A stretch of 52,314 nucleotides of DNA, counting the filler, from Sphacelaria rigidula (lineage: Eukaryota), in the NCBI GenBank assembly GCA_964200075.2. It is 3 parts of 3 records of this genome, joined end to end, with 100 filler letters (N's around TTAATTAATTAA, not from the genome) between each part and the next. Parts side by side here need not be neighbours in the genome. Positions count along the whole stretch, not along the records: positions 34,948 to 52,314 come from CAXNAA020001098.1; 2 more parts are not named here. The stretch is one strand, 5' to 3'. Made by a program: the position numbers and the translations under genes. Shown in pieces: positions 19,714-52,314 of this stretch. The notes beneath the pieces were generated by a model. The model was not told where the DNA came from. It saw nothing but the letters and a program-made list of their open reading frames with translations, and did no database searches. Within the stretch, counting starts at the first letter, position 1. Each line of letters begins with the position of its first letter.

Positions 19714-21040
19714 GCGGAGTTTCTTCGCGATGCACTGTATCGATTCTTGCCAAGCGTGACTTTGGAAAGAGTGAACAGAGTTATCAAGAGATTGCAAGCG
19801 GGAAAGTTTGAAGGGACGCTAGGTCGCGACATGGGGTCATCAGGCGCGAAGAGGTGTGGGGTACTTGCTGTCGTTGCCGCTTTGGTGACAGAGAAGAAGA
19901 TATTGCGGATGTTAACGTGGCGATGACTGAAGTTGCTTCATTTCGAGTTACTGTACAGTAAATGGGAGCAATATGTTTGCACAGTATTCGTTTGGGTGGT
20001 AACGGGAAATCACAGGAATGACAGTACTTCCTTGGTAATTGCTTGCAGAGTAAGGGGAGAACATGATTTGCTCGGTAACGATCTGGATCGGAACGGGAAC
20101 ACAATCTCCTTGGCAACATGACTCGTCAGTTGTATTGGTTGCATACGTAGGCTACCTCGGTAAACCGATGTTTCCCCGCCGTGCTGTACAGGGCCGACAG
20201 TCAGGAAAGTAGCAATGGGCGAGAAGGCCTGATGCGAGTAGGACAGACGCGCCAGGGGAGCGCTGGTGCAGACCAGGGCGGCAAGCCGGACAGCAGCACC
20301 AAGGGTGCTCCACGAGGTTCCACCTCCACGACGTCGGTGAAGCCGACGTCTGTCAGCGACTCTCTTGGAGCGGCGATGCCTGGAAGCTTCTTGACAGCGA
20401 CAGATCTACAAGAACTCGCCAGAGTATACGTCGTGTGCTTGAAGTAGAGTGGCAGTGCTATAGGGAAACACACAATCATGCTCCCGCGCTGGCTTGAAGG
20501 TTGCACGAGAGAAGTGGGTTGGTTGCGTTCACTGTACCACGTGCGATTGAGCCTAGCCTGCGCTCGGAAAGGCACACCACGCGAGCCAGACGTGTTGTTG
20601 GTTTTCACGCGTATGTCTGTGCTTGTATGCAATGGCGGGTAGCTGCTGGCAACCGATTGTTTTTCTGTTCCCATCCCGAGTGACGAGCGTCGGAATTGTC
20701 TGTCATTGGGCGGACAAGATATATATGTATTTGGGAGGGGCAACCGAGTTCGTGGCACTTTCCATGTAGACAGCAAACTGATCGCACACCTTCGTGCGCT
20801 AGACAATTCCTGCCCGCAGCTGTGATCATCAAATTGGCGACTCAAGTTCGTATTGGTCGGGGTTGTCCTGGTGGAGTTGGAGAAAGTACGCAGCTCCCAC
20901 GAGTGGGAGTAGAGACGTGGCGAAGAAACACAAAATGTGATCGAACTCTCTTGAACGGCAGCTGACACCATCCACGTTCTTCGAAGCGAAGTAGAAGCAT
21001 GTAAAGAGTTATGGATACGACAATACGACACTGAAATCAG
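19714..21040 (+). pseudogene. Spliced gene fragment of unknown function, probably pseudogenised
   Basis: Exon-like blocks 19714-19853 and 20192-~20423 join in frame via a phase-2 GT-AG intron (AEFLRDALYRFLPSVTLERVNRVIKRLQ...). A third AG/GT-bounded block at 20770-21040 reads protein-like but has 3 in-frame stops. Confidence 0.35.
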
Positions 21041-21599
21041 GTATGTGGAGTAATGCGTGGCGCCAGTTCAAGGCCAAAGGTTCTGCTTGTCATTTTCTCC
21101 TCTCGAATCGAAGCCAAGATCTCGCATGACCATTGTCTAACCGAGCGGCAATACGAGTAGCGAAAATCTCACATGCCCATATTTGAATCGAGAAAAGACG
21201 CGTGATTCTCGTGGATCATCAGCAAACTCCTCACAATGTAAAATGAATTATGCCCGAGTGCATCAAAACCCAGTGAAACTACACTTGAAGACTTCTACTT
21301 CCAAAGAGCACGTGTTATTGTACATCCGATTCGGCGGATCTACCCCGGCCGCCAGAGGACACGCATAGCCACCTACCTATCTCCGCCCCAAAGCATTAGA
21401 CTCGACTTGTCTCAATCCCTTCACATCCAGGGCGGGTCAACAGAGTGTCACCAACATTTTGAAGTTGCCGATCCGACTGATGACCCCCCCTGGCGGCCAG
21501 AGTGTCCAAATTGCATAGTAAAAGATGATTCTCGAATGCTATCCTCTTCGAACCGCACGAAACTCACATGGCCATGTTGGAGCTGGTTCAGGGAAGTGG

Positions 21600-22790: not shown

Positions 22791-25700
22791 TCAGTCCGTC
22801 CGAGAATGTCTCGGGGCGCGAGAGTGGTACACTGCGGTAGAGGGGGCATGTAAAAACAGCTTCGGCGGCTGCTGTTGATGCGGGGAGGTGCGCCTTCTTA
22901 CGGCAGTGCTATCCACGTCCGCTGTCCGTGCCCCTGCTGCCCCCGCCCCTTCAAGCGCCAAATCAACAGCACCGTTAGGTCTGGAACTGCATCGTTTGCT
23001 AGACTCCAGAGCCGTCTCCCTGCCACCGCTGCCTAGGCATGTCCCCCCTGAGGCATCTTCTCCCGCCACGTTCGTGTGCTCGCTTTCGTCTACACGACTA
23101 CTAGCAACCGAGGACCGAGCGAAACCCCAGCCAGCTGCAACCCCCCGAACGGAAGTCACGGAGAGTGATGGCAACAGTGCAGGGGTCGCAAACGTGCCAA
23201 GTGGACGGAACTTTTCTGCCAGGGATTTGCCTTCGCCCACGGGAGTAACGAGGCTTCCATCCTCCATGGTACACCTCCGACGGGTCCTCCTCTCGGACGA
23301 GGAACCACCAGCAGTACTAGGACTACAAGTAGAAGCGGCCGGAGAACAGAAGGTGGGCGAGTCGGCGAGCATATCCGCTTCTCGACGTCGTTTGCGTTGC
23401 TTCTTGTTCCCGTTACTGTTCGTTTCTCCAGACGCACCCGGCGGAGAGCAAACAGCGCCGCTCTTCGCGACATTGCGCCGTTTTTCGGGGGCAGGTGACC
23501 GTTCTGTGCTGCCTCGCTTGCTTTTGCTGCTGTCTTCGTCCGTTCCTTGCTGCCGTTTCCCATCCAACCGCCGGCCACCCGCACTAGCACAGATAGAGTC
23601 GGCTGCTGAGGTAGGGCGGGAGCGTATGTTGCGGCGGCTGAGCTCCGTACAATCGACAGCTGAGCGGCGCCTTATTCTGTCCTTGGTCCCCCTTCGGCTT
23701 TCGGGAGATGAGGACGTCGTACATGCAGCCTTTGCGATAGCCCGCGCGTATTCCGCGGAGTCAGCAAGAGCCTGCAACGCGCGGGGGCGGCGGTCCTTTA
23801 CCTTGCTTTTACGCGTCTCATTGGACGGGGAGAGCAAAGAGGAGCGAGCGCCAGGGGCAGCGAAGGAGGAAGAGTCACCCTGCTCCTGGTGTTCCGCTAA
23901 TGAATTTGTGGTAGCGGTTTCATCTGTCTCGCTATCCGGTGGTGGTGGTAGACCTTCATGAAATATCCCAAGCGCTGAAGCGCTCAACCTGGGCACATCC
24001 CGAACAGATCCAACGCGCAGCGTCACGTGTGGGGTGCGCGCCGCCGTCGCAATCAAAACATCATGTGAGGTCGACTGTGGGGGCGAGCCCGTCGCTCCCT
24101 TTATTTCTTCACCAGCGTCATCTCCATGCAGTTCCCAAGCAGCCGAAGGGATCGCTTTTCTTCGTTCTCGTCCATTCACCGGCGACGGACGTACCGATAG
24201 CCCCGTCATCTTGCTTTCACCAGCTGCTGCCGTCTCAGGTATAGCCACCTGCTCGCCGCTGGCGTCGGCTGCGACATCTTTCCCCGGCACTAATATGTCC
24301 ATGTCCACGAGGTCACATGCTTCGTCGATAGGGCGTGTAGAGGATGACTGTTGTCGCTGCGACCCGCACCGTGGCGAGGCACTGGCGGGCCCCGACGGAC
24401 GTGTCGGTGAAATCACCGCCGGCGCATGTACGTTCTCCTTGGCTGCGGTTTGTGCCTGGCTCATCTCACCACCGGCGGCGCCGGTAGCGATGCCAATCGA
24501 CTCAGAGGGTTTCACCACTGAATCCGAACCGGCACGTGCCAAACCCGCATTGTCTTTCGCGGTGGTGGCTGCAGTGAGGTCTAGTGTATGGACGGAGGAC
24601 GGTGACCCGGGCATCACCGCGGTCGTATCTGTTAGCCCGTTGCCATCCCCAGAACTTTTTGCTAACTTCGTCCTCACCCCCACAGAAAGCACACCGAAAC
24701 CTCCGCTGTTGCTATTGCAACTTGGAGCACTCGGCTGACCGGTTGATTCTCGGCACATAGCTCGGCTGTCTCCTTCGATAGCATCACTCTGTTCGGACGG
24801 AGCTTGCGCGCAATTGCGTCCAGTCGTCGACACAACGGGAGTGGAGGCGGGGGCAGCAGCGCCAATTTCTCCGTCGCGGTCAGATCCTCTTTTGAGGTTA
24901 CGGTGGGTACGATAATCACTCTCGTCTTCGGCAACGCGACTCGCCAGCGCTAACAGCAGGGTGAAACTAGGGTCCTTCGCCACTGAGGCCTGGTGCTCCT
25001 CTCCGGCGCAGTGCTGCGCGAGGAGTGAAATGGAAAAACGAATATAGTACAGGAACAAAACATGTGAAATAAGTCACGATACACTATTCGGCGAATGGTG
25101 CGCCCACCCATGAGACAAGTTGGTCTAGATTCCGAGCTGGTTTTACGTGACACGGTTGCACACGATCAGAGAGAAATGTACTACGGCAGCAGATCTAACA
25201 CGGGAAAACGCTTGTCATCGTATCACCTCTGACATTGTACCGATGTACTGCCTCTCGCAACATTCACACCACCCGCCTCGCCGAGGCCTTGGAGGGCCAC
25301 CAGGCATGCCAAGGGCCGCGGGGGGCTTTCCCTTCCAGCCGTCACCACCGAAGGATTGAACGTTGGCTTTTTTTTTCTGCTTGAGAACTTCTCGAGCCCA
25401 CTGCGTAAATTTTTAGTGGGGTAGAGGGAGGAATGGAGGGCGGGGTCAACATGTGTGACGACGCACGCACGCACGATGAAAGAAGAGAGCCAATCAAGCA
25501 CAAGCGCGACGAACAGAATATGCGAGCAAGCTGTTTTCTTCTGAGCTATCCTAGTGTCATAACACGAAATTGCAAAATCGAAATCACCCACCTGTTCACG
25601 CGGTGTAAAGGGACATATCCCTGGCGGGGCGTCGTGGTGCAGGTTGCACTTGCGCATGAGCTCCGGGGGTAACGCCTGCAGTGCCCAAGGGATGGCAGGT

Positions 25701-34947: not shown

Positions 34948-37900
34948 AAAACGAAAATCCGCAACACAAGGCAGAAAAACAACACGTGGCAACCGTCCTT
35001 GTAAACGGGAGCGGTTATCGTGTGTATGAAGCAAGCAGGGTCAAAACGTTTCAGCCAAGAAGGTCAAAACATTTTCGGCAACCCATGTCAATATAAAATT
35101 AACGTAGTACGCACAAAAAAAGGGGACACGTCATTACCAATCCTGCAGGGGGGAGCGGTATGCGTGTGCGGAGCGGTTGGGCAAGAGCGCAATTATTCCA
35201 GACGGGGAGGTCAGGTATATGCAGCGCTCGCTACTAAAACTCTCACCCGAAAAGGCAAAAAAATAAAGAAAAATACCGACGACATATGCCACAAAAAAAA
35301 GAGGACACGTCATGACCGGTCCCGAAAAGGGAGGCGGCACTCGCGTGCAGAGCGATCGAACAAAAGCGCAAATATTCCAGATGTGTGCGTCAGCTATGGC
35401 TAGCGCTTGCTCCGGAAACTTTTCCATCGAAACAAAAAGTCAAAGATAAAGACCATGTAATAACAAAGCAAGACAACATGTGCGTACAACGAAAAACAAA
35501 TGAAGACAGAATCAACTCGTGGCAACTGTTCCGTTGGACGGAATGGTTGTGAATGTACGGCGCGGAGGACGGAGCTTCAAGGTTCCAGACTCGGGGTCAG
35601 GAATGGAACGATCGTCACTTGTACTTCGCCAGATGAACCCAGGAGTACCCAAGAAAAGTACCCATTGAACACAAAAAATCGAACACAAAGGACGAGGCGA
35701 AAAGAAAAGGAGACAAAAACACAATATAACAAAGACAACAACAAAGGCAAAGAAAATCGAAGCAAAACAAACAGGGTCCAAAGCAACAAAAAAAAACGTA
35801 ACGCAAAAACAAAGAATATAAAATACAAAAACGAAAGACCAAATACCAAACACGACACACCGACACACATCAATCCCTACGAGTACGGGGCTAATCAGTA
35901 CGAAAAAAATTGAAGTGGAGGAGGGGGGGAACACATGGTTTTCCAACGACGCTACAATGCAAGACAAGCGACTCGAACGCGGTGCACTACGCAAGGTGAA
36001 TGGGGAAGCAGACTCGGATGCGGCATCATGAGTCATTTGCATCCCAAGCGGTGTCCGTGTTCCGTAGAACGGCTGTTTCGAGTTCGCCTTGGTCGTGTCG
36101 TTGGAGGCACCAGGATCCCCTCCGAGCGGTCGGCTCCTCGGTGTAGTACGCATCATCAAAGCGAATCTTAAATGGGCTCGGGTCATCGAAGAAACGGTTC
36201 AAGTAATAGTGGTCAGATGCAGGGTCGACAAAATGAATTTTACCCAACCACCACAGTGAATCCAAAGCCTTATACCAAAAATACGCCCCTTTCGGCAATC
36301 GTTTCCCATGGAAACACTGCATGTATTGTGAACGCGAAAGAAGGGTATATCCTGTCACAACAAACCGCGCTGAGTGTTCACGTGTCAGTTCTCGAGCGGC
36401 AGCTCCCTTGCGCATCGACCGATATCTCTTATTCAGCGGGCGGTGTTGGACGGTATCTCCTACCCAGTACAGCAATATTTCCCGACGAAAATGACGCAAC
36501 TCAATCTCACGGTCCCATGTAACACGCATGATACCCTTCCAATGTGTTTGATACATTACCGCTATCTTATTTCCACGATCACGAACCAGTTGATGACCCA
36601 AAATCCTATCTACCTCAACGCGTTCCAGGGGTGCGTCCGCATCCGCGACCGCCATATGATACGGCGGAGTTTTGATCGTATTATACTTGGTCAACACATA
36701 CTGGCTAAGCCCTACCGGCAGTTGTTTGGGCATGTCAGAAGAGTCATGAAGGGGGATGCACGGTTTGCATCGTAGCATCGAGACGCGATTTTTCGGTTTC
36801 AAACCAGGTTCATCCGTGGGAAAATCTAAATACAAAAGTTTCGCTCCCACCGGACTCTTGTCGGGTGCGGTAGCGCTCGGACCAACAGCTAAAATTTCCC
36901 AAGGACCAGTCCAATTCAAGGATAGTTTCGCCTTCAACACTTTATCCAAAGATGATGATTTCGAGCTAGCCCCTTGATTGATGGTCTTCACATCGTTATA
37001 CACCCATGCCCATTGGCCTACCTTCCACACCGGGCGGTTATGCACCACATCATCCAACATCGAGTTCGCCCTGGCCACCTTGGCCAAATTGATTTGGTTC
37101 TGTTCTCGTACCACTTCATATGCAAGACGGAGACGATTGCTAACCGACAAATGATACTCTGCAACGTCACGATCCAGACTCTGATGTCCACCTGTATTTT
37201 TGCGTTCGAATACCGTTAAAGGTAACCGAGGCATGCGTCCAATATGAATTTCATTCGGCGACAATCCCGTAGCGGCATTGACTGAATTGTTGTAGTTCAT
37301 CTGGACAAGGGGCAGGTGCAGATCCCAGTCCATCTGTCTCTCATTCGCTACAGCAGCAAGCATCTGCGCCATCGTATGGTTCATTCGTTCCGTTCCACAT
37401 TGGTGGAAGGGTGATATGAGCTAGGTAAAATGCAATGGGCACCCAAAAGGTCACTGACGGCGGCAGAAAGTTTGTCTGAAAAATGCGGGCCGTTGTCAGA
37501 GAGTAAGCGTTTGGGCACACCCCACAGTGGGATGTGCATGTAGACAAGAATGTTGGCGGTACGTTCCGCGGTATAACTACTGGGGGGGACGGCGTGCATC
37601 ACCGCATGTCGACTAAATCTATCCGTAAACAACAAAGTATACTTCCGTCAGGGGCAAAGGACCAAATTAGTCCCACGACCTACTTCACCAGGTCCGTTTG
37701 GGAGTGGCATTGAAACAATCGGCCAACGAACTGTTTGACGAGAAGTTTTTCGCACCTGACACAAAAGACAACGCCTCACCCACCATCGACAACACTGATC
37801 CATACAAATCCATCAATAAAAACGTTCCAACATCTGGGAGGTCCTAATGGCGCCTAAATGAGTCGATGCCTGTGAATGGCATTCGTGTAGAACCCATGGG

Positions 37901-40900
37901 CGCAGTAGCATCGGAACATAAATACGTACGGGGGCATCGCCCAACAAACGGGCGTGACTAGTTGTGGATTTCCCTCCAGGAGGGTTCGTGGGAGGCCGGT
38001 GAACTAAAAGTACAACGCCATTATCATCCGTATAAAGCATGCCTTTACGCGATAATTCAGTAACTTCATCCTGTGTGGTGGCTCGGTGGGGCCCTACTGG
38101 CAAAAGGAACCCAATTTCTGGAAAGGGGGAGGGGCATCCTTTGGATAGATAATGTATAGCTGCTCTACAAACAGGTTCAGCTTGCTGTTCCCGGGCCCAA
38201 TCGGCGTGAGAAAAGAGGTTCAGTTCCTTGAATACACTGTCGGAGGGGTTGTCCAAAACGCAGGGGATCGAATCGCCGTGGGATAGACACGAGGCGTTGT
38301 TTGGATCAAGGTCAGAAGGGGTGGTCAGTGTATGCTCAAACGGAACGTTCACCTCTATTCCTACGTTGTGGAGGGTGTCGGATGGTGTGGTACCGAAGGT
38401 GGTACCATCACGGGGTGGGAAAGGCACAGTCGACGTCTCGACTATGGTGGACAGAGATGGTTTGGAAGGTGTCAATTTTCTGGGGGCTTTGCGCCGTGGA
38501 GGTAACGGGGGCGCAAGAAGGCTATCGGGGACTGTAATGGGGTTGGGGATTGGGAGGTCTGGACCGGCTGCTACCAGGGCGGCAGCCGTTTCCGCGGCCC
38601 GGCGTCCTCGGGTCCGGCTCAAGATGAGGTCTCGGACTTGAACCGGGAGGACGCAGTCAGTAGAAACCGGCTCTACAGCGCAAACCAACCGATGACCAGA
38701 CGCACGAAATTGATCATACCCGCCGGTAGTTGCACGAATTTCACTCCTAACTGAACACAACGATCGTGGAGCCAAACTGCCCAATACAGAAGCGTGAGCC
38801 GAAGGCGTCAGCTTATTTTCAATAAGTGCCGAGTTGTGGTTCAGTAAGAATGGCCTAGGAACTCGATGCGTGTGGCTCCAATGCGGGATTTAGATGGGGC
38901 GAGCTTCAAATTGTGTTGTTTAAAACGAGCAAAGAAGGACGCTAAGTGTTCGACGTACTCAGCAGGTGTACTGCCGTGAACCACCGCATCGTCGAGGTAC
39001 ATGCGGCATTTGGACAGTCCATCAATGACGCGAAACACCACACGTTGAAACGCTCCTGGGGCGCCAGCGGCACCTTGTGGAGTGACCAGTCACTCATATA
39101 GACCTGATGGGGTGCAAAACGCCGTCAGCTCGATAGAGTGCGGATGCATCACCAGTTGGTCGTAACCGGACTGCATGTCGAAGTTCGAAAAAACTTTTCC
39201 CCCGCCGAGGGAGTCGATGATTTCATCAATCCGGGGAAGAGGTAGACGCGCGATTTTGGTGACTGCGTTCAATCGTTGATAATTGACGATCAGTCGGATC
39301 TCACCATTCTTCTTCCGGACGACTACCAAAGGCGAGGCCCACGGAGACGTTGAGTGCCGTATGAACCCGGCGGACAAGCATTCGTCGGGAATTACTTGAA
39401 TTTTACCCGCTAGAAGAGGGTTTGTACGGTACGGGCGCATGGCGATAGGTGTCGTGCCATCAGGAATGTTGATTTTGAACGGTATAGTGTTGCAGCGTCC
39501 TAAATCTGTTGACGATTTGGAAAACCGTTCAGAGTACCGTATCAAGATGGAGCGCAACCAATCAGTCACCGTGGGTGTCCAACCCTCACCAGATGAATCA
39601 AACGCAATGTGTCTCAAATGGGGGAGAATTTCATCCCATAATCGTTGAAAACTAACACGTTGCTCTGGCGAGAATGTATCTAGTAAGGCAGTCGGAGGGT
39701 TTGTGTCAGGCGCATCAGTCGATTCGTCTACAACCATGGGATCAGTCTTGTCGAACGAAGTGGAACCGTTTGTCTCTGAGCTGTCTGATGATGTTTGCGG
39801 TTTTACCTTCAGACATACATTCGACAAGGCTGCCCGTAGGAGGGGCGCTTGAGCAAAACCCAACAACTGACCAGGGAGGACATCGAGACATGCAGAGGAC
39901 GTGAGGGGAATGGATTGCCGACCCTCATGGACAAATACATCGGTCTGATCAAAGGGGGGAATACTGTCTGGGGTTTGGTTGGGATTGGTTAAGTCGACCA
40001 AGCACTGTCCAGTGAGGGCGCGGGATCCGTTCCGTCTCACAAGATTCACATGAATGTGTTGAGGTTCACGGGACAGAGAGACGACGTGGTCTCCAACATG
40101 ATACAGTCGAAAAGCATTACCTGTTTGTGTTGGGTCATCGACATCGGCCTGAGCCCCTGGATCAGCGTCGTGATGTCCCAATTTCAATCTGCCTGTCAGT
40201 AGTCGGTTCAAAACAGGTGAGTTTGTCGTGTATGTATGTGTGGAAAAACGTAGCCAGCTATCACGTCCCAAGAGAATATCAACCGACATGGAACCATCGG
40301 GCACAATGAGTGCCCACACAGCTAATCGTGCAGTGGGACCCGTGTCATCGAAGAAGTGCACACTGAGTCGTACTGTTTGATCAACCGTAAGTGGAGTGGA
40401 GGCACTAAACCCGCCAAAAACACGAGGCGGAACAGTAGAAAGGCAACGTTTGTCTGCTGCTCCAGCGTTCATCATGTGTTGCCAGCAGCTGGCTGTGATG
40501 AAAGTTTGTGGCGAGCCAGTGTCGGGCAGTGCAACGGCCATCAAAGGGCGCGTTGCATGCACTCCACTATGTACACCTATTCGGGTTGTGAAGGAGGCGT
40601 CATACATTAGTGCAGTTCCACTTACCAAGTCGGGTCCGTTTTCCCACAAGTGATCTGCAGCCACATCGCTCTTGTGTTGTTGGGCAATGGTACTAAAATA
40701 GACTCGAGATTGATCCTCCGGAACAAATGTGTTTCCCGAAGGGTCGTCGTGGCACGGGGGGGTTTGCATGGCGTGTGGTGCAGTAGACAAAAGTTGGATT
40801 TCGCACACAGTCAGGGATGGACGACGCCTAGGAAAGGAAGTGGATGTGGATGTGCGCAATAATTGTTTGAAGCTATGAGAAACAGGGGAGAAACAGCCGT

Positions 40901-42833: not shown

Positions 42834-43200
42834 TGTGGAGATGGCCATTTAGGCATGTGCGGAGAGATTTCCTTTCATGACGTGTAACCTAGTGAACGGC
42901 TGTTACAGGGGTATGGTCGCAGTAGCCCCGAAACTTCCATATCTGTACAGCCGGATCTGGGACCCCAAGGTAACACGGATCTTCCCAGCGAACTGCTGGC
43001 TATCCCTGGGGATCATTCTTGACCAAGACTCTCAGACTTCATCATCGGGCTAACTTGCTCGCGCTCGTCGAGCTTTCCCGAGTGATCCACTTTGCCTCAA
43101 CCCCACGACTTACGGTCAATCCTTGACTACATAACCCGAGGGAAATCATCGGCCACCTTCGCCGGTTTCTACCGTCACCGGGAGTCCCACGACTTCCACA
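42834..43200 (+). repeat. 5' LTR of element B
   Basis: TGTGGAG..TTCCACA; 13 substitutions vs the 3' LTR by manual count (~96.5% identity). Confidence 0.96.
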
Positions 43201-43201
43201 T

Positions 43202-43214
43202 TGGCGAACACCAG
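43202..43214 (+). promoter_or_regulatory. Primer binding site of element B
   Basis: TGGCGAACACCAG, 1 nt after the LTR; priming tRNA not identified. Confidence 0.7.
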
Positions 43215-43276
43215 TTTCAGACAAGTGCGCGAGACCCTCGGATTTGTTTTTTCTACCCCGTTATACATCATTCATC

Positions 43277-45295
43277 ATAGGGAGGAACAACAACAAAAAC
43301 AGCGGAAGCAGCAGCGGCGGGTCAACGGGCGCAGGCGCAGACGCGTCTTCGTCCTCTCCTGCCCAGCCGACGTTTGCTCAAGTAGCACAGGCACCGACCC
43401 CGGAAAAATCAGCTGCCTCGCCCGCGACCCCCTCGTCGTCCACGCCAGCCGCGCCCTCGTCGTCGTCCAAGCCTGGGGTTTCTTCGTCCCCCTCGGAGGA
43501 AAAATCCGACAAAGGCAAGAAGAGGGCACGTGACCCTGAGGGGAGGACACGCTCCCAGGCCGGCAATGCCCCCAGCGACCGGGGCAACCGCTTTTCTCTC
43601 CTCCGCGAGGAGAATGAAAGCAGCTCCGGCCTTGGCGACACGGATCCCGAAAACGTGGGCAGGACTCCCTCATCGAGAGCCGTCACCTTTTCCGATCCAG
43701 TGCCAGGACACATCAAAGAGGCAACTCAAAAGGTAGCCTTGAAAACTATGGAGCAACACTTCAACAAGGGGACGGACCCTCCTGAGTGGGCTTTGCGAGC
43801 GCTGGGGATGCTGGACTCCCCTCAAGATGTGGTCCAGCAAGTACACCAGGTGAACCATGGGGCGGCAGTGGAACAGCCAAACTTGGAGGTAGAAGTAGTG
43901 AGGGGTACTTCCGTACATCTACGTCGCGGTGATCATGCACCTAATGACACGACGCCGCCAAGCTCTCGTAGTGTACAGGCACCAACCACGCCACCTCGAT
44001 TGTCCCGGGCGACTAATAATGTAGTAGATCAAGTCACTGCACAAAATCATTCGCCTGGCACAAACTCTCAAACCTCGCTGACTTCCACCCAAGTTCACCC
44101 GAGCAACGTAGGTTACGCATCCACTACGAACCAACAGGTGATCAGTAGTCCTCAGACATTACTCATGTGCCTGGCGGAAATTTTTCACCCCAAAGGGCAC
44201 CAAATTTGACCTCCTCGCATGAAAACCAAAATCGATCAAGTGCTATCGACAATATAGTACACACTCCTCGATTCACGCTCAAGCAAAACGATCTCGGTTC
44301 TAACATGGTTTTGAGAGGACTACCAACTGAAGACATTCCAACGATAATGCGACAGTACCGGTCCCGAGTTGAAATTGACTCGCAGGATCAATGCACGCGA
44401 GAGGAAATCGATCGCTGATGCATCAAGCATTTACAGCTCTTACTGAGGGACACAGCTCTCGACGCCTACACAGATCTCGCAACCGGTACCTTAGAATGGT
44501 GGACAGAGGCGAATCTCGAAGCCCTTCGGGCACAAAGAGTTGAAGTATCTACCAGGGCCCCCGCATCATGGGACGAGTGGGTCGATGCTAATACGAATTT
44601 ATACTCTGAACCTAATCGCATTGGAATCCTCGCCCGGGCGGAGCTCAAGTTTAAGGACCACCACACTGTAGACTCCTATGTGCTAGAAGTGTCCAAAGCA
44701 CACTCTCGTTTTTACGCAGAGGCCGCACGAGTCACGCCATATGGTAGGGACCCAGTTAGCTTCGCACGGGAAGCCAGCCAGACGGCTGCGTTTGAAGTAG
44801 GATTCCCGCCACATATCAGGGTTGAAATCGTACGCGAAGATCCAACTCATAGCTTTCAGGTTGCAAGAGCCCGCGTAAAAAAAACACGAAACCAATTATT
44901 TGCGCGGGACTCAGCCAGAAATTTCCAATCCCTCTCCGACCCACGTTTCATCTCTCGCCATGCACAGCTCCTCTCAGCTCGCGGAAACAGTCGCCGATCA
45001 AGGGCAGCAAATTGAAACATTGTTGAGAGAGAAACGGTGGGCTGGCGGAGACCGCGGAAGGTCGAAAAAACGTTCTTCACACCCGGGGGACAAAACGGGC
45101 CCATCACCTTCTCCCAGTGAGACAGCAAAACGTAGTCGGTCAGTGAGTAGAAGGCGTGGAAGAAATGATAGTCAATCAAGAAAAAAAGGCGAGCGTTGCA
45201 CATACAAGCCGTGCAGGTTCAAACACAATCGTTCCATAGAAGACTGTCAACTAGCGAAGAAACATAAAGAGCAGCTGTTAGCGTTAGGTGTTTGA
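43277..45295 (+). pseudogene. gag: gag of element B (interrupted)
   Basis: Low-complexity S/P/A-rich N-terminus directly after the PBS; basic C-terminus with a knuckle-like CTYKPCRFKHNRSIEDC; several stops and frameshifts. Confidence 0.65.
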
Positions 45296-45799
45296 TGGTG
45301 CCCAGAGCAGGGGTCCTCGCCCAGCGAAGGGACACGTGTACAAGCGAAAAGAGCAACTACCGTGCAGTCTGTCGGAAACGTTTTCAAGGTAGCAAGCGTG
45401 ACGCAGAAGTACAGAAAATCGAGGGAAAATATTGTGCACCACGAAATGAGTGTGGACCCTCTGGTGGGAGATAACAAGGGCAAGAAACGTGTGCGGTTTG
45501 CCTGCCAAGGCGTATCTTGTTTTGTGAGGTCATGTAAGAGAGTACATGTGGAAAGGGTGACAGTTGCAACGGCTAGAACAAAAGAGCAAATGGGGAATAC
45601 AACAGGTCAAGATCAGATGTTACGTGGGAAGCATCGCCACCTAGAAATTGCGCCCCAAGCTGCTTTTGTAACCAAGACGTCTCGGAAAAATAATGAAAAG
45701 CACAGATCCAATTTTTTCCCCTCAGGCTCGGCAGACTTCGAGCCTTTCTCCATGTCTTCGTTAGCCCGCTACCCTAGGAAGCCGGCAACATTACGACTT

Positions 45800-48700
45800 G
45801 CATCAGCAAGAGTACAGGTACCCGCCAGAGTCAACGGAATGGAGGTTCCGGCCATAGCCATTGATACTGCTTCGAATCTTCCCATAGTCAGTCTCAAGTT
45901 TATTCGTGCACATCCTACTTTGAGAGAGCAGCACATTTAATCCGTCTTATCGCGTTCTATAGTTCTACGAAGTGCTGACGGTCCCCCAATCACGATAAAG
46001 GGATTTATTCGCTTTGACCTTACGCTGGGTGACATAACCTTGCCCGTCGAGGCATTTTTCCTCAGGAATCTCGGGCCAGATCTCATGCAGATAGAGAATT
46101 CGGTGATGAGCGCATTTGGCGAGATTCTCGATTGGCAGGAAGAAACCCTGGCGTTTTGTAGTTCAACAGTTTGTCTAACAGCTACTCATCGAAGAAAAGA
46201 CAGAAAATTTCATCCGAAGTTTTCAGAATATGATTATTGTTCTGTCATACGGGTAGCAACGACTGAAAATGTACCGGTGTATCTTTCAAAAAGATGCTCC
46301 GTCCCGCCGCGAAGTGAGATGACTCTCCTGATCGAAACTAATGAGCCGCCAAAACTCACGACTGAAGCGATCATTGAGCCAAGAATTGTAACCAGGGAAG
46401 ACCTCCAATCCAACAAAGTACCGGATGCTTTTAGCCGCTTCGTTGTAGCACGCACAGCCTGCACCTGGTCAGCGGTCGACAAAGCAGCTATGGTACAAGT
46501 AGCAAACCCGTCGAATAGACACATCCAACTCCCAAGAAATTTACTTTTGGGACACATCACACAAGTCGAAAAAAATGATCCGACGGGAAACGCCGGTGAA
46601 ATTTAACAAGTTGAAGCAAATAAGCCGACGGAAAACGTCAGTACAATTCACAAGCTGAACGGAAAAATACTGACGCCCGAGAAGAACTGACAACAGCGCT
46701 CCAAAATGGATTCAGATATAGCATGTTTTCTGAAAATCAGAAGAGCCAAGTGCTCGACCTATGCATCAAATATAGGTCCGTCTTCTCACTGTCACAACAA
46801 GAATTAGGTTGTTGTACAATTGGGGAAGCAACTTTCCCCCTTGTCCCGGGCACCAAGCCCGTCGATCGGGCCCCGTACAGAGCCAACCCCAGAATTCAAG
46901 AAGTCATCGACAACTATGTACAGGGGATGGAAAAAGACGGAATAATCGAACAACGACCCAGCCCATGGGGCTCGGCAGTGACGATCGTAGCTAAACATGA
47001 TGGTACCGCCCGATTTTGTTTTGACTACAGATCGACGCTCAATAAAAGTCTTGTGCGAAATTCATGGCCAATGCCTAATTTGGAAAGCCATGTGGATACG
47101 GTGGCAGGTGCCAAATTTATCTCTGTCTTTGATGTACAGAGCGCGTTCCATCAGATCCCAATAGCGGAGGAGGAGAAAGAAAAAACGGCCTTCGTTACAG
47201 AGAAAGGTAAGTGGGTTTTCAACAGGCTACCGTTCGGCCTGGCATCTTCCCCGTTCATTTTTTCGCGAATAATGGCTCTTACTTTCTCACACTTTGGACC
47301 CAGGAGCGATCTCTTGGTGTACATGGATGATTTGATCGCCTGCTCCTCCACATGGGAAAGTCACCTCACTCTACTGGAAGACATGTTCCAAGTACTGCAA
47401 AAAGCAGGTCTTACCCTAAAGCCCTCTAAAGCACAGTTTGGTCCCAAGGAGGTCAAGTACCTCGGCTACACTTTGTCCGCCGACGGGATCAAACTTGGGG
47501 AAGACCGCGTAAAGGTCATCTTAGATTTACCTACACCAACGAACATCAAACAATTACGTTCAGTGTTAGGGACGATTAATTTTCTGAGGAAATTTATTGC
47601 GAATCTCGCACAGGTAATTGCTCCGTTGGTAGATCTAACGAAAAAAGAGGCAGCCAAGGAAGTAGAAAAACGCTGGAATCACGAACATGATTCAGCTTTT
47701 GCCGAAGTAAAAAGTCTTCTCACCACCGCTCCTGTCCTTCACTTCCCGGACTTTTCAAAGGAGTTCACCATTCAAGTTGACGCGTCTGGAGAGGGTGCTG
47801 GGTCGGTGCTCACCCAAGATAAAGGGGGCAAAACTGCAACCGCAGCGTATTTCAGTCAGCGTTTCAATCATGCTCAGCGGCACTACTCTGCTACACTCAA
47901 AGAATGTTATGCAGTTGTAATAAGTATACGACACTGGAGGCCCTTTTTATAGGGAAACATTTCACGTGTGTGACAGACCATGCAACACTACGGTACCTCT
48001 ACTCCATCCAAGACACGAGCAATATGTTGACAAGATGGGCGATAGCTTTTACAGTCCTTTGACTTCACTGTGAAGCACAAACCGGGAAAATTAAATATCG
48101 TTCTGGACACTCTGTCTAGGCTCTTTCGGTTTGAAGAAGACCAGAATAATGAGGTCAAACCCCTGCTCGCGCCAATTGGTCGGAACGTCCCAGAGGATCC
48201 CAAATTGCACGTGAAGAAACGGCACCAACCGTTTCAAATTTCAGCGGATAACTTGGATAATCTCGAACCAGTACAGAGCGACAGAGAGCTGTTTACCGTC
48301 AATGCTACCCACACAAGCGCTACACATTTTTTCACGTCTGTAAACAAAGACAAGTTGCGAACCGAAGAGGCAAAATAATATGGCTCTTATTTTCAATATC
48401 TGACAGACGACGACGCACCGTTACCGGAAAAGGAGACACTGACTTCTATGTCCTACTTTTTGCTCCGTGACGGTATTTTGTTCAGGTCATACTTGCCAGG
48501 GAACCTTCGAAAAAAAGGCACCGACCGCGATAGACTAGTGCTACCAGAAGCTCTGGTTAATTTCGTTCTGCACTCCTATCACGATCATGTGTTGTCTGGA
48601 GGTCACCTTGGATTCAAACCGACGTATGAAAAGATTAAGAACAAATATTATTGGCCGACATTGAGCCAAGATGTGCGAAAGTGGTGTCAACGTTGCCACT

Positions 48701-49938
48701 CATGCCAGAGAAGAAAGACGGCCCATAACCGTCCGAAATTGCCTGTTGGCCACGTACCTGTGAACAGACCTTGTGAGCGGATATCGATAGATCTTGTCGA
48801 ATACAAGACGATTTCAAATTCGTCAGCCGGCGTGCCGTGTAAGTATGTAATGTCTGTGATGGATCATCTGACACGATGTGCACTGTTTATTCCCATACCG
48901 AACAAGTCCGCCAATACGGTGGCAAGAATGTTGGTAGACCGTGTCTTCACGACGTTTGCGATACCCGAAAACTTAATTCTGATCGCGGTAAAGAGTTCGA
49001 GAACCGGGTGATACACCAGTTGCAGTTGATCTTGAAGTTTGACAAAACACGCACGACACCATTCCGCCCTCAAGGCAACTAAACTCTGTTTCAGAACGCG
49101 TACACTCAAATTTGCACGCTATGTTAGCCATGCATAGTACGGTCGAACAAGACAACTGGGCGTCTATACCACCCTTCGTGCAAATGGCGTAAAATACATC
49201 ATTCAACAACATCTCAGTGCAAGACACACCCTATTTTGTCATGTACGGACGTCAACCAAAATTACCTGTCAACATTAGTGTGGGCATTTCCGAAAAAGAG
49301 CACGCTGTGGATGCTGAACAATACGCGAAAGAGACAAAAAAAACTTGCAGATAGCTTTTGAAATAGCAAGACGCAACTTGAAAAAACGAGCAGACAGACA
49401 AAAGGCAAGCAATGATAAGCTCAAGCCATATCCTGTCTTTAACCCTGGCCAACAAGTGCTACTGTTCAGGCCACACCAAGACACAGACGGTCCTGATCCA
49501 ACGTTGGTATTACTATGGCGGGGGTCATACAAGACCGTCAAACAAATTTCTCCGGTTGTTTATAAGGTCAAGATTAGCGAAGATGCGAAAGAGACGTCGG
49601 CACACCTTGCTCACCTTCAGCAATATTATCCACGAGAACGACCCCCAGCTCCCGAGTTTGACCGACTCGACGAGTATTTCCTAGGCAAAAAACTACCCCT
49701 GCCCCAACTTGACCGTCCGGAAGTAACAAAACCAAGAATTGAACGTTACATCGTTGACAAGGTGGTGGGCCACAAACGAGGTCCGGGAAGAAAGAGCCAT
49801 CAAAATTACAAGTACCGTCTCCGTCTTCAAGGCTACGGGCCGTCAGTAGACTTGGAGTACCGAGCGGACAGAATGCCACAATGTCAACAACTCATCAACG
49901 CGTATCGAATAAAACACAAGTTGGATAATACGCGCTAA
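45800..49938 (+). pseudogene. pol: pol of element B: protease, RT, RNase H, integrase, chromodomain
   Basis: IAIDTAS; SPWGSAVTIV, KTAFVT, RLPFGL, YMDD; VDASG..YSATLKECYAV; HDH..GGHLG..CHSC, IDLV, VMDHLTR; YIVDKVVGHK..YRLRLQGY. Stops at ~45938, 46604, 47950, 48376 and later frameshifts. Confidence 0.93.
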
Positions 49939-50335
49939 TTTGACTCGCCATCTTAAAATTCGAAAAAAAAAAAAGGAGAGAGAAAAATATAAGGCGAGCT
50001 GAAAAAAACATCGTGTCATGCTTACACGACCAACAGAATGTCTGAAAAAAAAAGAAGCGTATAAAATCAAACCAAGTTGAATAATACGCGCTAAGATGAC
50101 TCGCCGTCCCCAGAATTCGTAAAAAAATTAAATCAATAAATTAAGGCGGGCTGCAGTACTTTTTCGTGTCAGGCCTACACGGCCAAAATAATATTCAGAC
50201 ATGAACGCGCATTAAATCAGTTCAAGATAACGTTATACGCGCTAAGTTGACTCGCCGTGTCATAAATCCGGAGAAAAGAGAAAAAATTATAAGGCGAGCT
50301 GGAAAAAATAATCGTGTCATACCTACACGACTAAC
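49895..50335 (+). repeat. Three ~151-156-bp tandem units overlapping the pol stop, with conserved inverted-repeat stems
   Basis: TACGCGCTAA at 49929, 50085 and 50236; each unit has CTCGCC..GGCGRG and TCGTGT-N7-ACACGR. Confidence 0.85.
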
Positions 50336-50901
50336 AATAACATCGGGACAGACCTCACGATCGAAAACAGATCGACGGTGAAGAGAGACTTGGATTTTGA
50401 ATCAAGCTCTTATCAGCATAAGGGAAACTTGCTGACAAGCATTGTCGTAAAAAGCTCTTTCTACTCTGAGCAAAATGCTTCGAGAAAAGAAAAGCACATT
50501 TTTTCCACCGCTGTACCCGATATCATTTCTCCCTGGTTACCTAATATATCACGCGGCCACCATACCTCCACTCCTCTGCAAGTCATGAGCGGACTTTATT
50601 GGCACAGACCGTCGGATACGGTAATCTGTGTAAATCGTTCAGCTGATCACTGAACGAAAGTTGCACGAAATTTAATGGAAAACAAACTATTTTCCAATTT
50701 TTTCTTTACACGAGCCTGAAGGAGAACGTCGATAAAATTCATTGGTTAGTGTTTCTCAACACCCAGTATAGAGGATATGGCGCGTTCAACTCCAGGCTAC
50801 TATAAAATTATCTCAGATAAACACAAAAATTAGACTCCCCAAAAATTATCATTCTCCCGAATGCCCGCCACGAGCCTTCACAGATGGCCTCGCGGCGCAT
50901 C

Positions 50902-50917
50902 AAAGGGGGGGGGGTGA
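50902..50917 (+). promoter_or_regulatory. Polypurine tract of element B
   Basis: AAA followed by a G-run then TGA, abutting the 3' LTR. Confidence 0.9.
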
Positions 50918-51284
50918 TGTGGAGATCGCCATTTAGGCATGTGCGGAGAGATTTCCTTTCATGACGTGTAACCTAGTGAACGGCTGTTACAGGGGTATGG
51001 TCGCAGGAGCCCCGCAACTTGCATATCTGTACAGCCGGATCTGGGACCCCAAGGTAACACGGATCTCCCCAGCTAACTGCTGGCTATCCCTGGGGATCAC
51101 TCTTGACCAAGACTCTCAGACTTCGTCATCGGGCTAACTCGCTCGCGCTCGTCGAGCTTTCTCGAGTGATCTACTTTGCCTCAACCCCACGACTTACGGT
51201 CAATCCTTGACTACATAACCCGAGGGAAATCATCGGCCACCTTCGCCGATCTCTACCGTCACCGGGAGTCCCACGACTTCCACA
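50918..51284 (+). repeat. 3' LTR of element B
   Basis: 367-bp direct repeat of 42834-43200. Confidence 0.96.
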
Positions 51285-51469
51285 TAGGCATCACATATAA
51301 TTATAAAAAATAGTATATACTGCCCCTTGATAAATATTCACATGTATATAATTATATAATATATGAATACATTGCTTACAATATATAATATAGTATATAT
51401 TAAGGAGAAGAAGCATTTGTATAATATAAACCTATAATATAGATCTATATTATATGATATATAATGTAT

Positions 51470-51710
51470 GAAGTATAGGATATGAAATGTAATATATGAA
51501 AAATAATATATGAAATATAGTATATGAAATATAGTATATGACATATTGTAAATGGAATATAGTACATGAAACATAATATATGAAATATAGTATATGAAAT
51601 ATAGTATACGAAATATAGTATATGGAATATAGTATATGAAATATAGTGTATGAAATATAGTGTATGAAATATAGTGTATGAAATATAGTATATGAAATAT
51701 AATGTATGAT
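51470..51710. repeat. AT-rich 14-bp minisatellite (TATATGAAATATAG)n
   Basis: Visible directly, more than a dozen degenerate copies. Confidence 0.9.
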
Positions 51711-52314
51711 TTAATATATATATGAGGATCTCTCTACGGTCTACGCCGGCTGACCGCATCCGCCAACGCTTCGGCAAAAAACCAGGGGACACACGGCTGG
51801 ATGTCCCCCCCCCCCCTTCAAAAACTCGATTTTTCGATCTTGGGGCCTATGTGCCCTGAAGTTGTTTTTCGCTGCCCCCTCGTTAGGTATGCCCAAATAG
51901 CAATGAAGCTCCGAAGCGAAACTTGCGTACTATGAAAAGAAGACGAGAATGCTAAAGAACAACACAGTCGTTGCTGCCTCACCCACATAGACTACACATA
52001 AGAGGAAAACGCGACAGATATCGACAGTAGGTAAAAGGCAACGTGAACAACCGTGTACTATCTACGACGGACTCTAGGGGTACATCACAACGTGCCCGCT
52101 GAAGACTGAGGATACTGAACAATGCACGGAAACGTACAATAGAAAGGGAATGCTGCACGATGTATGCCGTGCATCCGAAGCGTGTTCGTGTTAGTAGGAG
52201 TCGCTCATAGTTGTGTTAACAGCAAATTGTGCGAATTGAGGTTTAACTCTGAGGTGAGGCTCAAGTGGGCAACCCGACTTGCGAAATGTTTGTAGCAGAA
52301 GTACCGAGGATAAG

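Follow-up and report, generated by a model that had tools for sequence, protein, structure and literature searches.

Chromovirus Pol ends soon after one chromodomain, which follows the C-terminal region of the integrase and is thought to tether integration to marked chromatin; such integrase chromodomains were reportedly described in MAGGY, Tf1 and others by Gao et al. in 2008. The integrase of HIV-1 is tethered by the PWWP domain of LEDGF/p75. There is ample documentation that transposons have captured Chromo and PHD domains (bioRxiv 10.1101/2021.11.30.470311), and the capture of reader domains by transposable elements for targeting is established (PMC11541908, PMC12477816, bioRxiv 10.1101/2021.11.30.470311). 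For Ectocarpus, the text of PMC12477816 (Genome Biol 2025) describes four Gypsy lineages, three with "putative C-terminal chromodomains", and reports the chromodomain lineages as unrelated to the chromoviruses and the Chronos clades. One chromodomain lineage, exemplified by Gypsy-12_Ec32, carries an N-terminal YbiA-type NADAR domain on Pol; the fourth, Gypsy-10_Ec32, has a C-terminal Tudor domain, is called there the first transposable element with a Tudor, and has a homologue in Tribonema (PMC12477816). Here we describe a Ty3/Gypsy copy from the brown alga Sphacelaria rigidula (assembly GCA_964200075.2), contained in a stretch of 52,314 nucleotides (nt) that is referred to below as the window. 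The integrase frame of this copy runs through a chromodomain into a second, Tudor-like domain.

The window holds a copy of a brown-alga Ty3/Gypsy family whose full Pol is predicted to comprise NADAR, (protease), reverse transcriptase (RT), RNase H, integrase, chromodomain, linker and Tudor-like barrel. The preliminary description of this DNA had placed a chromodomain and an in-frame continuation at the end of the integrase, and translation of the frame recovers both at the positions given for them. The strings EVDRILGH...YQTHWKG...TWDREIEL...ILLYW lie at about 36628-36464 on the minus strand, and past the chromodomain the frame runs on for 145 amino acids (aa), with LPKGAYFWYKALDSLWWLGKIHFVDP...HYYLNRFFDDP...GSWCL at 36298-36104, minus strand. 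The integrase's own GPF/SH3-like C-terminal region sits upstream of the chromodomain (alignment; Pfam SH3_Tf2-1). With residues numbered from 1 over the last 211 of the frame (window positions 36029-36661), the frame and the predicted parts of its tail are as follows:

36029..37420, minus strand: intact 464-aa frame with the C-terminal integrase core, GPF/SH3-like region, chromodomain, linker and Tudor (translation and tblastn)
36458..36628, minus strand: chromodomain, residues 12-68, three strands and a C-terminal helix (AlphaFold2, VIA, Pfam Chromo below cut-off)
36308..36457, minus strand: conserved helical linker, residues 69-118 (50 residues; AlphaFold2, alignment)
36092..36307, minus strand: Tudor-like five-stranded beta-barrel, residues 119-190 (AlphaFold2, Foldseek, VIA, HMMER against the PDB)
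36029..36091, minus strand: poorly conserved C-terminal tail past the barrel, residues 191-211 (21 residues; predicted local distance difference test score, pLDDT, below 50 at 204-211)
36026..36028, minus strand: stop codon closing the Pol/integrase frame (frame translation)

The two tail domains and the linker between them are real, confidently folded in prediction, coupled in Pol proteins, and under purifying selection at the end of the integrase. The frame is not a product of chance, since its last 200 aa match 33 proteins of 255-812 aa (E 1.9e-119 to 1.7e-10), and its last 144 aa, compared by phmmer with 1.84 billion representatives, match 252 proteins at E<=1e-3 and 87 at E<=1e-10. Coverage of at least 65% of the 200-aa query is seen in 31 of the 33 matches, at 37-89% identity, the best match (89%) being named Sphacelaria rigidula; P0032 and P0033 of Ectocarpus sp. 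CCAP 1310/34 cover 31% and end just past the chromodomain. In the family alignment (A1), near-invariant residues are distributed across chromodomain, linker and barrel. The linker is predicted by AlphaFold2 to form a helix at 78-94, a short strand at 105-107 and a second helix at 110-116, with R84, A87, A88, R90, E91 and R94 near-invariant; the barrel keeps the motif LPxGAxxWYKxxDGLWWLGKI ... YxVRFLDDPGP ... GSWCLQxH throughout the family.

Members that carry a species name belong to four brown algae: Sphacelaria rigidula, Ectocarpus sp. CCAP 1310/34 (P0243, for example), Pylaiella littoralis and Nemacystus decipiens; no Tribonema-named protein is found among the named family matches. In these four algae, full-length relatives encode NADAR, RT, RNase H, integrase, chromodomain, linker and Tudor in one frame. 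In all seven polyproteins that reach 1950 aa, NADAR (PF08719; E 1e-38 to 1e-49) precedes the RT and the chromodomain is present; NADAR is missing from four shorter models that were scanned, three of which (P0205, P0246 and P0247) start nearer the RT, the other (P0212) starting within RNase H. Chromodomain, linker and Tudor occupy the extreme C-terminus, behind RT, RNase H and integrase, in 13 of 16 long polyproteins, the three without this C-terminal triad being Ectocarpus gene models, P0258 among them. Intact frames of 2070-2195 codons occur among the relatives. At locus L002 a single open frame of 2195 codons aligns to a family polyprotein from NADAR to Tudor in one tblastn segment, and there, as in the polyproteins, the barrel forms the extreme C-terminus of the integrase.

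The association of the two domains was followed with local profiles in 307 proteins. The barrel is present in 109 of the 110 proteins that have a chromodomain match and at least 125 aa downstream of it, and a chromodomain in 109 of the 129 that have a barrel match and at least 115 aa upstream, both counts being biased by the way the proteins were collected. The 20 barrel proteins without a chromodomain comprise 14 that keep the linker, three apparently out of frame upstream (P0098, P0151 and P0160), and three that represent a different protein.

The degree of conservation differs along the polyprotein. Mean pairwise identity among 12 polyproteins (66 pairs) is highest for the integrase core (0.75) and the chromodomain (0.73), followed by the RT (0.68), the Tudor barrel (0.61) and the linker (0.54), and falls to 0.46 in the spacer between RNase H and integrase and to 0.34 at the extreme C-terminus; the value for Pol overall is 0.62. 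Selection was assessed in five DNA loci of relatives from metagenome contigs. In all nine informative locus pairs the proportion of nonsynonymous differences (pN) in the Tudor codons, 0.24-0.41, lies far below that of synonymous differences (pS), 0.69-0.83; L003/L004, the tenth pair, shows no difference beyond one synonymous change. In most pairs the synonymous sites have reached saturation, leaving the comparison of pN with pS and a few ratios usable, and the dN/dS values of 0.16-0.20 in the three pairs with finite dS are rough because of this saturation. The second domain thus behaves as a conserved part of the family, as the preliminary description had required of it, by the number of its representatives, its coupling to the chromodomain, the alignment and the excess of pS over pN. 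Clusters at 90% identity contain 185 and 197 members on long contigs, and such large near-identical clusters suggest recent amplification with the tail intact.

With a NADAR and a chromodomain together, the family matches the Gypsy-12 type of PMC12477816. Compared by description, Gypsy-12_Ec32 shares with it the NADAR at the N-terminus of Pol and the C-terminal chromodomain of the integrase, but is described with a chromodomain only, to which the present family adds the linker and the Tudor. Gypsy-10_Ec32, also compared by description, has in common with it a Tudor at the C-terminus of a stramenopile Gypsy integrase, but belongs to a lineage separate from the chromodomain lineages, for which the text mentions no chromodomain. 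The architecture had been taken to be undescribed, and this holds in part: PMC12477816 reported Tudor-integrase fusions from Gypsy elements of brown algae in 2025, whereas the tandem is apparently not mentioned in the text of that paper. No description of a chromodomain and a Tudor in tandem on one integrase was found in the literature, PMC12477816 being represented by its text rather than its figures and supplements. The tandem is apparently a new variation, the Tudor fusion and the NADAR-chromodomain lineage being already known. Against the single chromodomain near the Pol end of chromoviruses, the present family has chromodomain, linker and Tudor. The proposed analogy with LEDGF/p75 is functional, in that a Royal-family barrel would link an integrase to marked nucleosomes; LEDGF/p75, however, is a host reader, bound non-covalently through a PWWP, whereas the present barrel is encoded in cis and is Tudor-like.

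AlphaFold2 applied to the last 211 aa with alignment A1 gave a model with pLDDT 87.1 and a predicted template modelling score (pTM) of 0.76. In this model the chromodomain has strands at 17-27, 33-41 and 47-51 and a helix at 52-67, which corresponds to the three-stranded antiparallel sheet with a packed C-terminal helix that defines the chromodomain (PF00385). VIA superposes it on the chromodomains of HP1, CDY1, Chp1 and MPP8 with Z 7.0-7.5 and a root-mean-square deviation (rmsd) of 1.2-1.7 over 50-54 residues (HP1 1kna_A: Z 7.0, rmsd 1.2, 50/52 residues; CDY1 6v41: Z 7.4, rmsd 1.5, 54/61 residues); chromo-shadow domains fall within one Z unit of the chromodomains (Z 6.8-7.2). At the sequence level, Pfam Chromo is matched by 10 of 32 family members at E<=1 (best 0.0026), and HMMER reaches the MPP8 and Swi6 chromodomains in the PDB at E 0.3-0.5.

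Residues 127-189 are modelled as five strands with pLDDT around 90. A model of the tail alone, built from a 93-row alignment (A2; pLDDT 87.4, pTM 0.79), reproduces them, and the predicted fold is the five-stranded SH3-like barrel of about 55-60 residues characteristic of Tudor domains. In Foldseek, ranks 1-25 (18 of them listed) are all PHF1/PHF19 Tudor chains, with E 0.0086-0.03, probability 1.00, 29-36% identity over 47-52 columns and rmsd 2.0-2.6; the template modelling score normalised to the target is 0.51-0.70 for the PHF1/PHF19 Tudor and 0.15 on multi-domain PHF1 chains. Drosophila Pcl and MTF2 Tudor, TDRD3, PHF20 and PWWP domains occupy lower ranks. VIA-align retrieves Spindlin, Agenet (AGDP3), the RDM15 Tudor, PHF20L1, PHF19, LBR, UHRF1 and SETDB1 at Z 5.0-5.8 (for instance 6wau_A, Z 5.2, rmsd 2.3, 55/57 residues; RDM15 Tudor, Z 5.5). 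The PHF19 Tudor also provides the only PDB sequence matches that cover the barrel, at E 0.038-0.12 with profiles (0.038-0.074 with the A2 profile) and 0.43 with the single sequence. Pfam Agenet, a Tudor-like family, is weakly matched by 6 of the 32 members scanned (best E 0.013), and no Pfam Tudor family is matched among them. A protein atlas search gave a best score of 0.85, with Spin/Ssty, Agenet and Tudor-knot clusters at only 0.78-0.80, which serve as leads only; the viral structures of BFVD contain no meaningful match.

From these results we conclude that the second domain is a predicted Tudor-type barrel of the Royal family, closest to PHF1/PHF19. The Polycomb-like (PCL) proteins PHF1, PHF19 and MTF2 are its best structural match and its only match at the sequence level, and share with it the pattern D-G-L-x-Y/W-L-G-K-I ... 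h-V-x-F-x-D. It differs from PHF1/PHF19 in that two of the four positions of the H3K36me3 cage are small or aliphatic, that the E-values are marginal, and that the barrel is preceded by a strand-helix element and sits in a transposon integrase.

Several observations weigh against reading the tail as a pair of histone-mark readers. On the window sequence Pfam places neither the chromodomain nor the barrel above cut-off, Chromo scoring 12.4-14.1 bits against a gathering cut-off of 25.1. All Foldseek E-values for the barrel exceed 1e-3, the top VIA row is the SH3-like domain of TraI, a non-reader (Z 5.9-6.5), and Z of 5-6.5 is flagged by the tool as common among small barrels. The aromatic cages are also incomplete. 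Their positions were read from alignments to MPP8 and PHF19 and from column counts rather than from coordinates, using what we take to be the cage residues of MPP8, HP1 and PHF19 (W50, Y56, F74 and Y80 in the last, a numbering that agrees with the aligned PHF19 chain). In the chromodomain one of three positions is aromatic: position 1 (residue 15) is aliphatic (L16/I8/V4/M3), position 3 (residue 44) is L19/I10/F1, and position 2, W41, is kept in 30 of 31 rows. In the Tudor two of four are kept in 93 rows: the equivalent of W50 is A44/S20/G19 and that of Y80 is I38/V17/A15/L8, with F in the window copy, while Y56 corresponds to W138 (W in 88) and F74 to F157 (F in 76). F157 is followed by the acidic pair D159 and D160, as in PCL proteins, and W129, Y130, W137, Y153, Y173 and W184 are further conserved aromatics of the barrel. 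Of the expectations raised by the preliminary description, a predicted SH3-like barrel was borne out, with Tudor domains as the top matches, and a conserved aromatic cage was not, neither domain having a full one. Because both cages are incomplete, we infer, rather than assert, two readers and integration targeting, and the two domains are treated below as putative readers. The loss of the first and third cage aromatics is said to resemble the 'group II' type of chromodomain of Gao et al. 2008. The Ectocarpus centromeric element ECR-1 is unlike the present family, since it is said to keep all three cage aromatics (PMC11541908).

With these points taken into account, we give a probability of roughly 60% to a role of the tail in the choice of insertion sites, in which it would enter the intasome, bind a nucleosome feature mainly via the Tudor pocket, and bias insertion. 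After processing of Pol, the integrase would retain the chromodomain-linker-Tudor tail. Within the intasome the tail would bind a nucleosome feature, most likely a histone-tail mark, read mainly by a Tudor pocket formed of W138, F157 and the acidic D159/D160, and the cage-poor chromodomain would provide a second contact or a packing partner. The pre-integration complex would thus be tethered by the tail and insertion sites biased, in parallel with the chromodomains of chromoviruses and the LEDGF PWWP tether of HIV.

The strongest competing explanation, which we regard as unlikely though deserving of serious weight, is that neither barrel nor chromodomain reads histone marks, and that the tail serves intasome assembly or nuclear steps rather than site choice. 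It could act through multimerisation as a chromo-shadow-like dimer, through DNA binding in the manner of PWWP or retroviral C-terminal SH3 domains, or through a methyl-arginine partner. The incompleteness of both cages is in keeping with such a role, as are the chromo-shadow domains that score as high as chromodomains (VIA Z 6.8-7.2) and the generic SH3-like barrels (TraI, KOW, Spt5) found among the Tudor rows of VIA; the pTM of 0.76 of the two-domain model suggests a fixed, packed unit and not two free readers. However, where sequence matches cover the tail, they are to chromodomains (MPP8, Swi6) and to PHF19, whose Tudor reads histones; conservation is among the highest at two of the cage aromatics and at the acidic residues that follow F157, and the integrase already possesses a GPF/SH3-like C-terminal region upstream.

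An identification of the second domain as a PWWP is improbable. The pattern G-x-x-h-W-x-K ... W-W resembles PWWP, and PWWP structures do appear among the structural matches (3pmi at rank 31 and 3llr at rank 34 in Foldseek; Shuguo PWWP with Z 5.3 in VIA). The two tryptophans, however, lack flanking prolines (LWWLGK, with W and W in 87 and 88 of 92-93 rows), the tail-only model has no helical bundle past the barrel, only short helices at 92-97 and 104-107, and Pfam PWWP is matched by none of the 32 members. PCL Tudors account for Foldseek ranks 1-25 and for every PDB sequence match that covers the barrel. PWWP is unsupported because the prolines at the WW and the helical bundle are missing and because PWWP structures rank below PCL Tudors, and the identification was rejected on the same grounds, in the absence of a P-W-W-P motif. 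Of the PWWP/Tudor-like domain put forward in the preliminary description, the SH3-like Royal-family barrel is retained (AlphaFold2, Foldseek, VIA) and its PWWP identity gives way to Tudor. It is very improbable that the tail is tolerated as a leftover of an earlier domain capture and has no function today: the window copy is dead and many database members are fragments, but the tail is as conserved as Pol overall (0.62) and far more so than the spacer or the extreme C-terminus, pN stays far under pS, 109 of 110 proteins couple chromodomain and Tudor, and frames of 2070-2195 codons persist intact alongside large near-identical clusters.

The Tudor module is also found outside Pol. From about residue 103 (GYxLV) onwards, the linker accompanies the barrel in non-Pol proteins too. 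P0051/P0244 (828-832 aa) and P0061 (612 aa) have no Pol domains, no chromodomain and no integrase; they show mutual similarity along the length of the sequence (29% identity, E 5e-62), each contain a coiled-coil-like region and an arginine/serine-rich region, and end in the GYxLV strand-helix-barrel module, 44-49% identical to the window. The N-terminal part of P0051 returns only itself in the sequence search and nothing in Pfam. In a quick unrooted tree the modules of P0051/P0244/P0061 form one supported group among transposon sequences (Shimodaira-Hasegawa-like approximate likelihood ratio, SH-aLRT, 98); because 50 of its 96 forks are open and it has no true root, no direction of Tudor transfer is drawn from it. 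These proteins could represent a host reader from which the domain was taken, a copy that has been domesticated, or the open reading frame of a non-autonomous element.

Three gene models combine parts of the family with other sequences. In P0031, a Nemacystus decipiens gene model from EukProt, TIMP and WSC domains are combined with a partial chromodomain plus the linker and Tudor of the family; the prediction is probably chimeric and runs across a transposon fragment, the alternative being a real exonisation. P0249 (Nemacystus) has Copia-type integrase domains upstream of NADAR, and in P0258 (Ectocarpus sp. CCAP 1310/34) the Tudor barrel breaks off after LPVGARL and gives way to Copia-like sequence. 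The latter two look like nested insertions merged into one gene model.

The histone marks reported from brown algae bear on the choice of ligand. Neither H3K27me3 nor H3K9me1/2/3 is present in Ectocarpus according to the text of PMC12477816. PMC13076208 reports no methylated H3K27 in any of the five species it analysed, with H3K9me1 detected in two species, the outgroup S. ischiensis being one, and H3K9me3 in a single species. Subunits of Polycomb repressive complex 2 (PRC2) are reported absent from brown algal genomes (PMC13076208), and DNA methylation is reported as lacking in brown algae (PMC12477816, PMC13076208). H3K36me3 marks active chromatin (PMC12477816/PMC13076208), while H3K79me2 and H4K20me3 accompany repression (PMC13076208) and repeats (PMC12477816). 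The likeness to PHF1/PHF19 suggests H3K36me3 as a candidate ligand, and H4K20me3 and H3K79me2 may be considered because of their reported links to repression (PMC13076208) and repeats (PMC12477816). A more far-reaching and doubtful proposal, unlikely to hold in full, is that chromodomain, linker and Tudor form a composite unit, evolved in a lineage that lacks H3K27 methylation and has H3K9 methylation sparingly if at all, that would read a state specific to brown algae, either H4K20me3/H3K79me2 heterochromatin or H3K36me3 gene bodies. The Tudor module would also have moved between the transposon and the non-Pol P0051/P0061, either as a host reader that was captured or as a transposon domain that was domesticated.

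The window copy itself is a dead fragment, truncated at the 5' end, frameshifted and deleted for RNase H, in which the last 464 codons happen to be intact. Family homology spans about 40841 down to 36029, and P0256 residues 1737-2183 align to 37411-36065 with 48% identity (tblastn of family polyproteins). A frameshift near 37400 separates the 464-aa frame from the remaining parts of the integrase, and the upstream regions are as follows:

37390..38214, minus strand: integrase zinc-binding domain and N-terminal core in another frame (tblastn, P0256 residues 1465-1745, 49% identity; Pfam Integrase_H2C2 match weak)
38215..38846, minus strand: gap at the expected RNase H (about 445 residues of relatives against 632 nt)
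38847..40841, minus strand: protease/RT region, start of family homology (P0274 residues 409-910 on 40841-39303; Pfam RVT_1 match weak)

RNase H was not detected in 38215..38846 by Pfam or by tblastn of family polyproteins. Neither tblastn at E<=1 nor Pfam found NADAR in the window copy, the homology beginning past the NADAR position, and gag was not recognised upstream of the protease/RT region. The copy is treated as truncated because window repeat searches and blastn found no long terminal repeat (LTR) pair for it. Just downstream of the stop codon, at 35500-35900, lies a low-complexity stretch, T-rich on the minus strand, to which neither a polypurine tract nor an LTR start is assignable.

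The window contains a second, unrelated Ty3/Gypsy copy, Element B, at 42834-51217 on the plus strand:

42834-43133 and 50918-51217, plus strand: 300-nt LTR pieces, 96% alike
46624-47949, plus strand: RT and RNase H
48379-49008, plus strand: integrase zinc domain

Element B has a chromodomain-like stretch, ERYIVDKVVGHK...YRLRLQGYG..., followed by a stop about 30 codons later, and so lacks the second domain, in agreement with the earlier observation. It is positioned directly upstream of the missing 5' part of the studied element and may have inserted into it. Elsewhere in the window there is a tandem array of about 25 units of 14 nt at 51405-51754 (17 overlapping 126-nt copies), and open frames of 760 aa (22791-25073, minus strand) and 288 aa (20201-21067, minus strand) match no Pfam family at E<=0.01.

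Integrases fused to reader domains offer natural experiments on the choice of chromatin by mobile elements. Brown algae are reported to lack H3K27 methylation and DNA methylation, and H3K9 methylation is reported missing from Ectocarpus and only sporadic in other species (PMC12477816, PMC13076208), so that it becomes a question what chromodomain elements recognise in these organisms. The family described here, abundant and apparently recently active, joins a cage-poor chromodomain to a PHF1/PHF19-like Tudor, and its tail of about 200 aa is a concrete, expressible probe for chromatin recognition in brown algae; existing maps from chromatin immunoprecipitation sequencing and genome assemblies permit a test of insertion sites. 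It would further seem that the domain map published for the NADAR Gypsy lineage, as given in the text of PMC12477816, is incomplete, in which case the Tudor would be more widespread in brown-alga retrotransposons than the single reported lineage. The chromodomain and Tudor tail, common to the whole family, probably steers the insertion of new copies.

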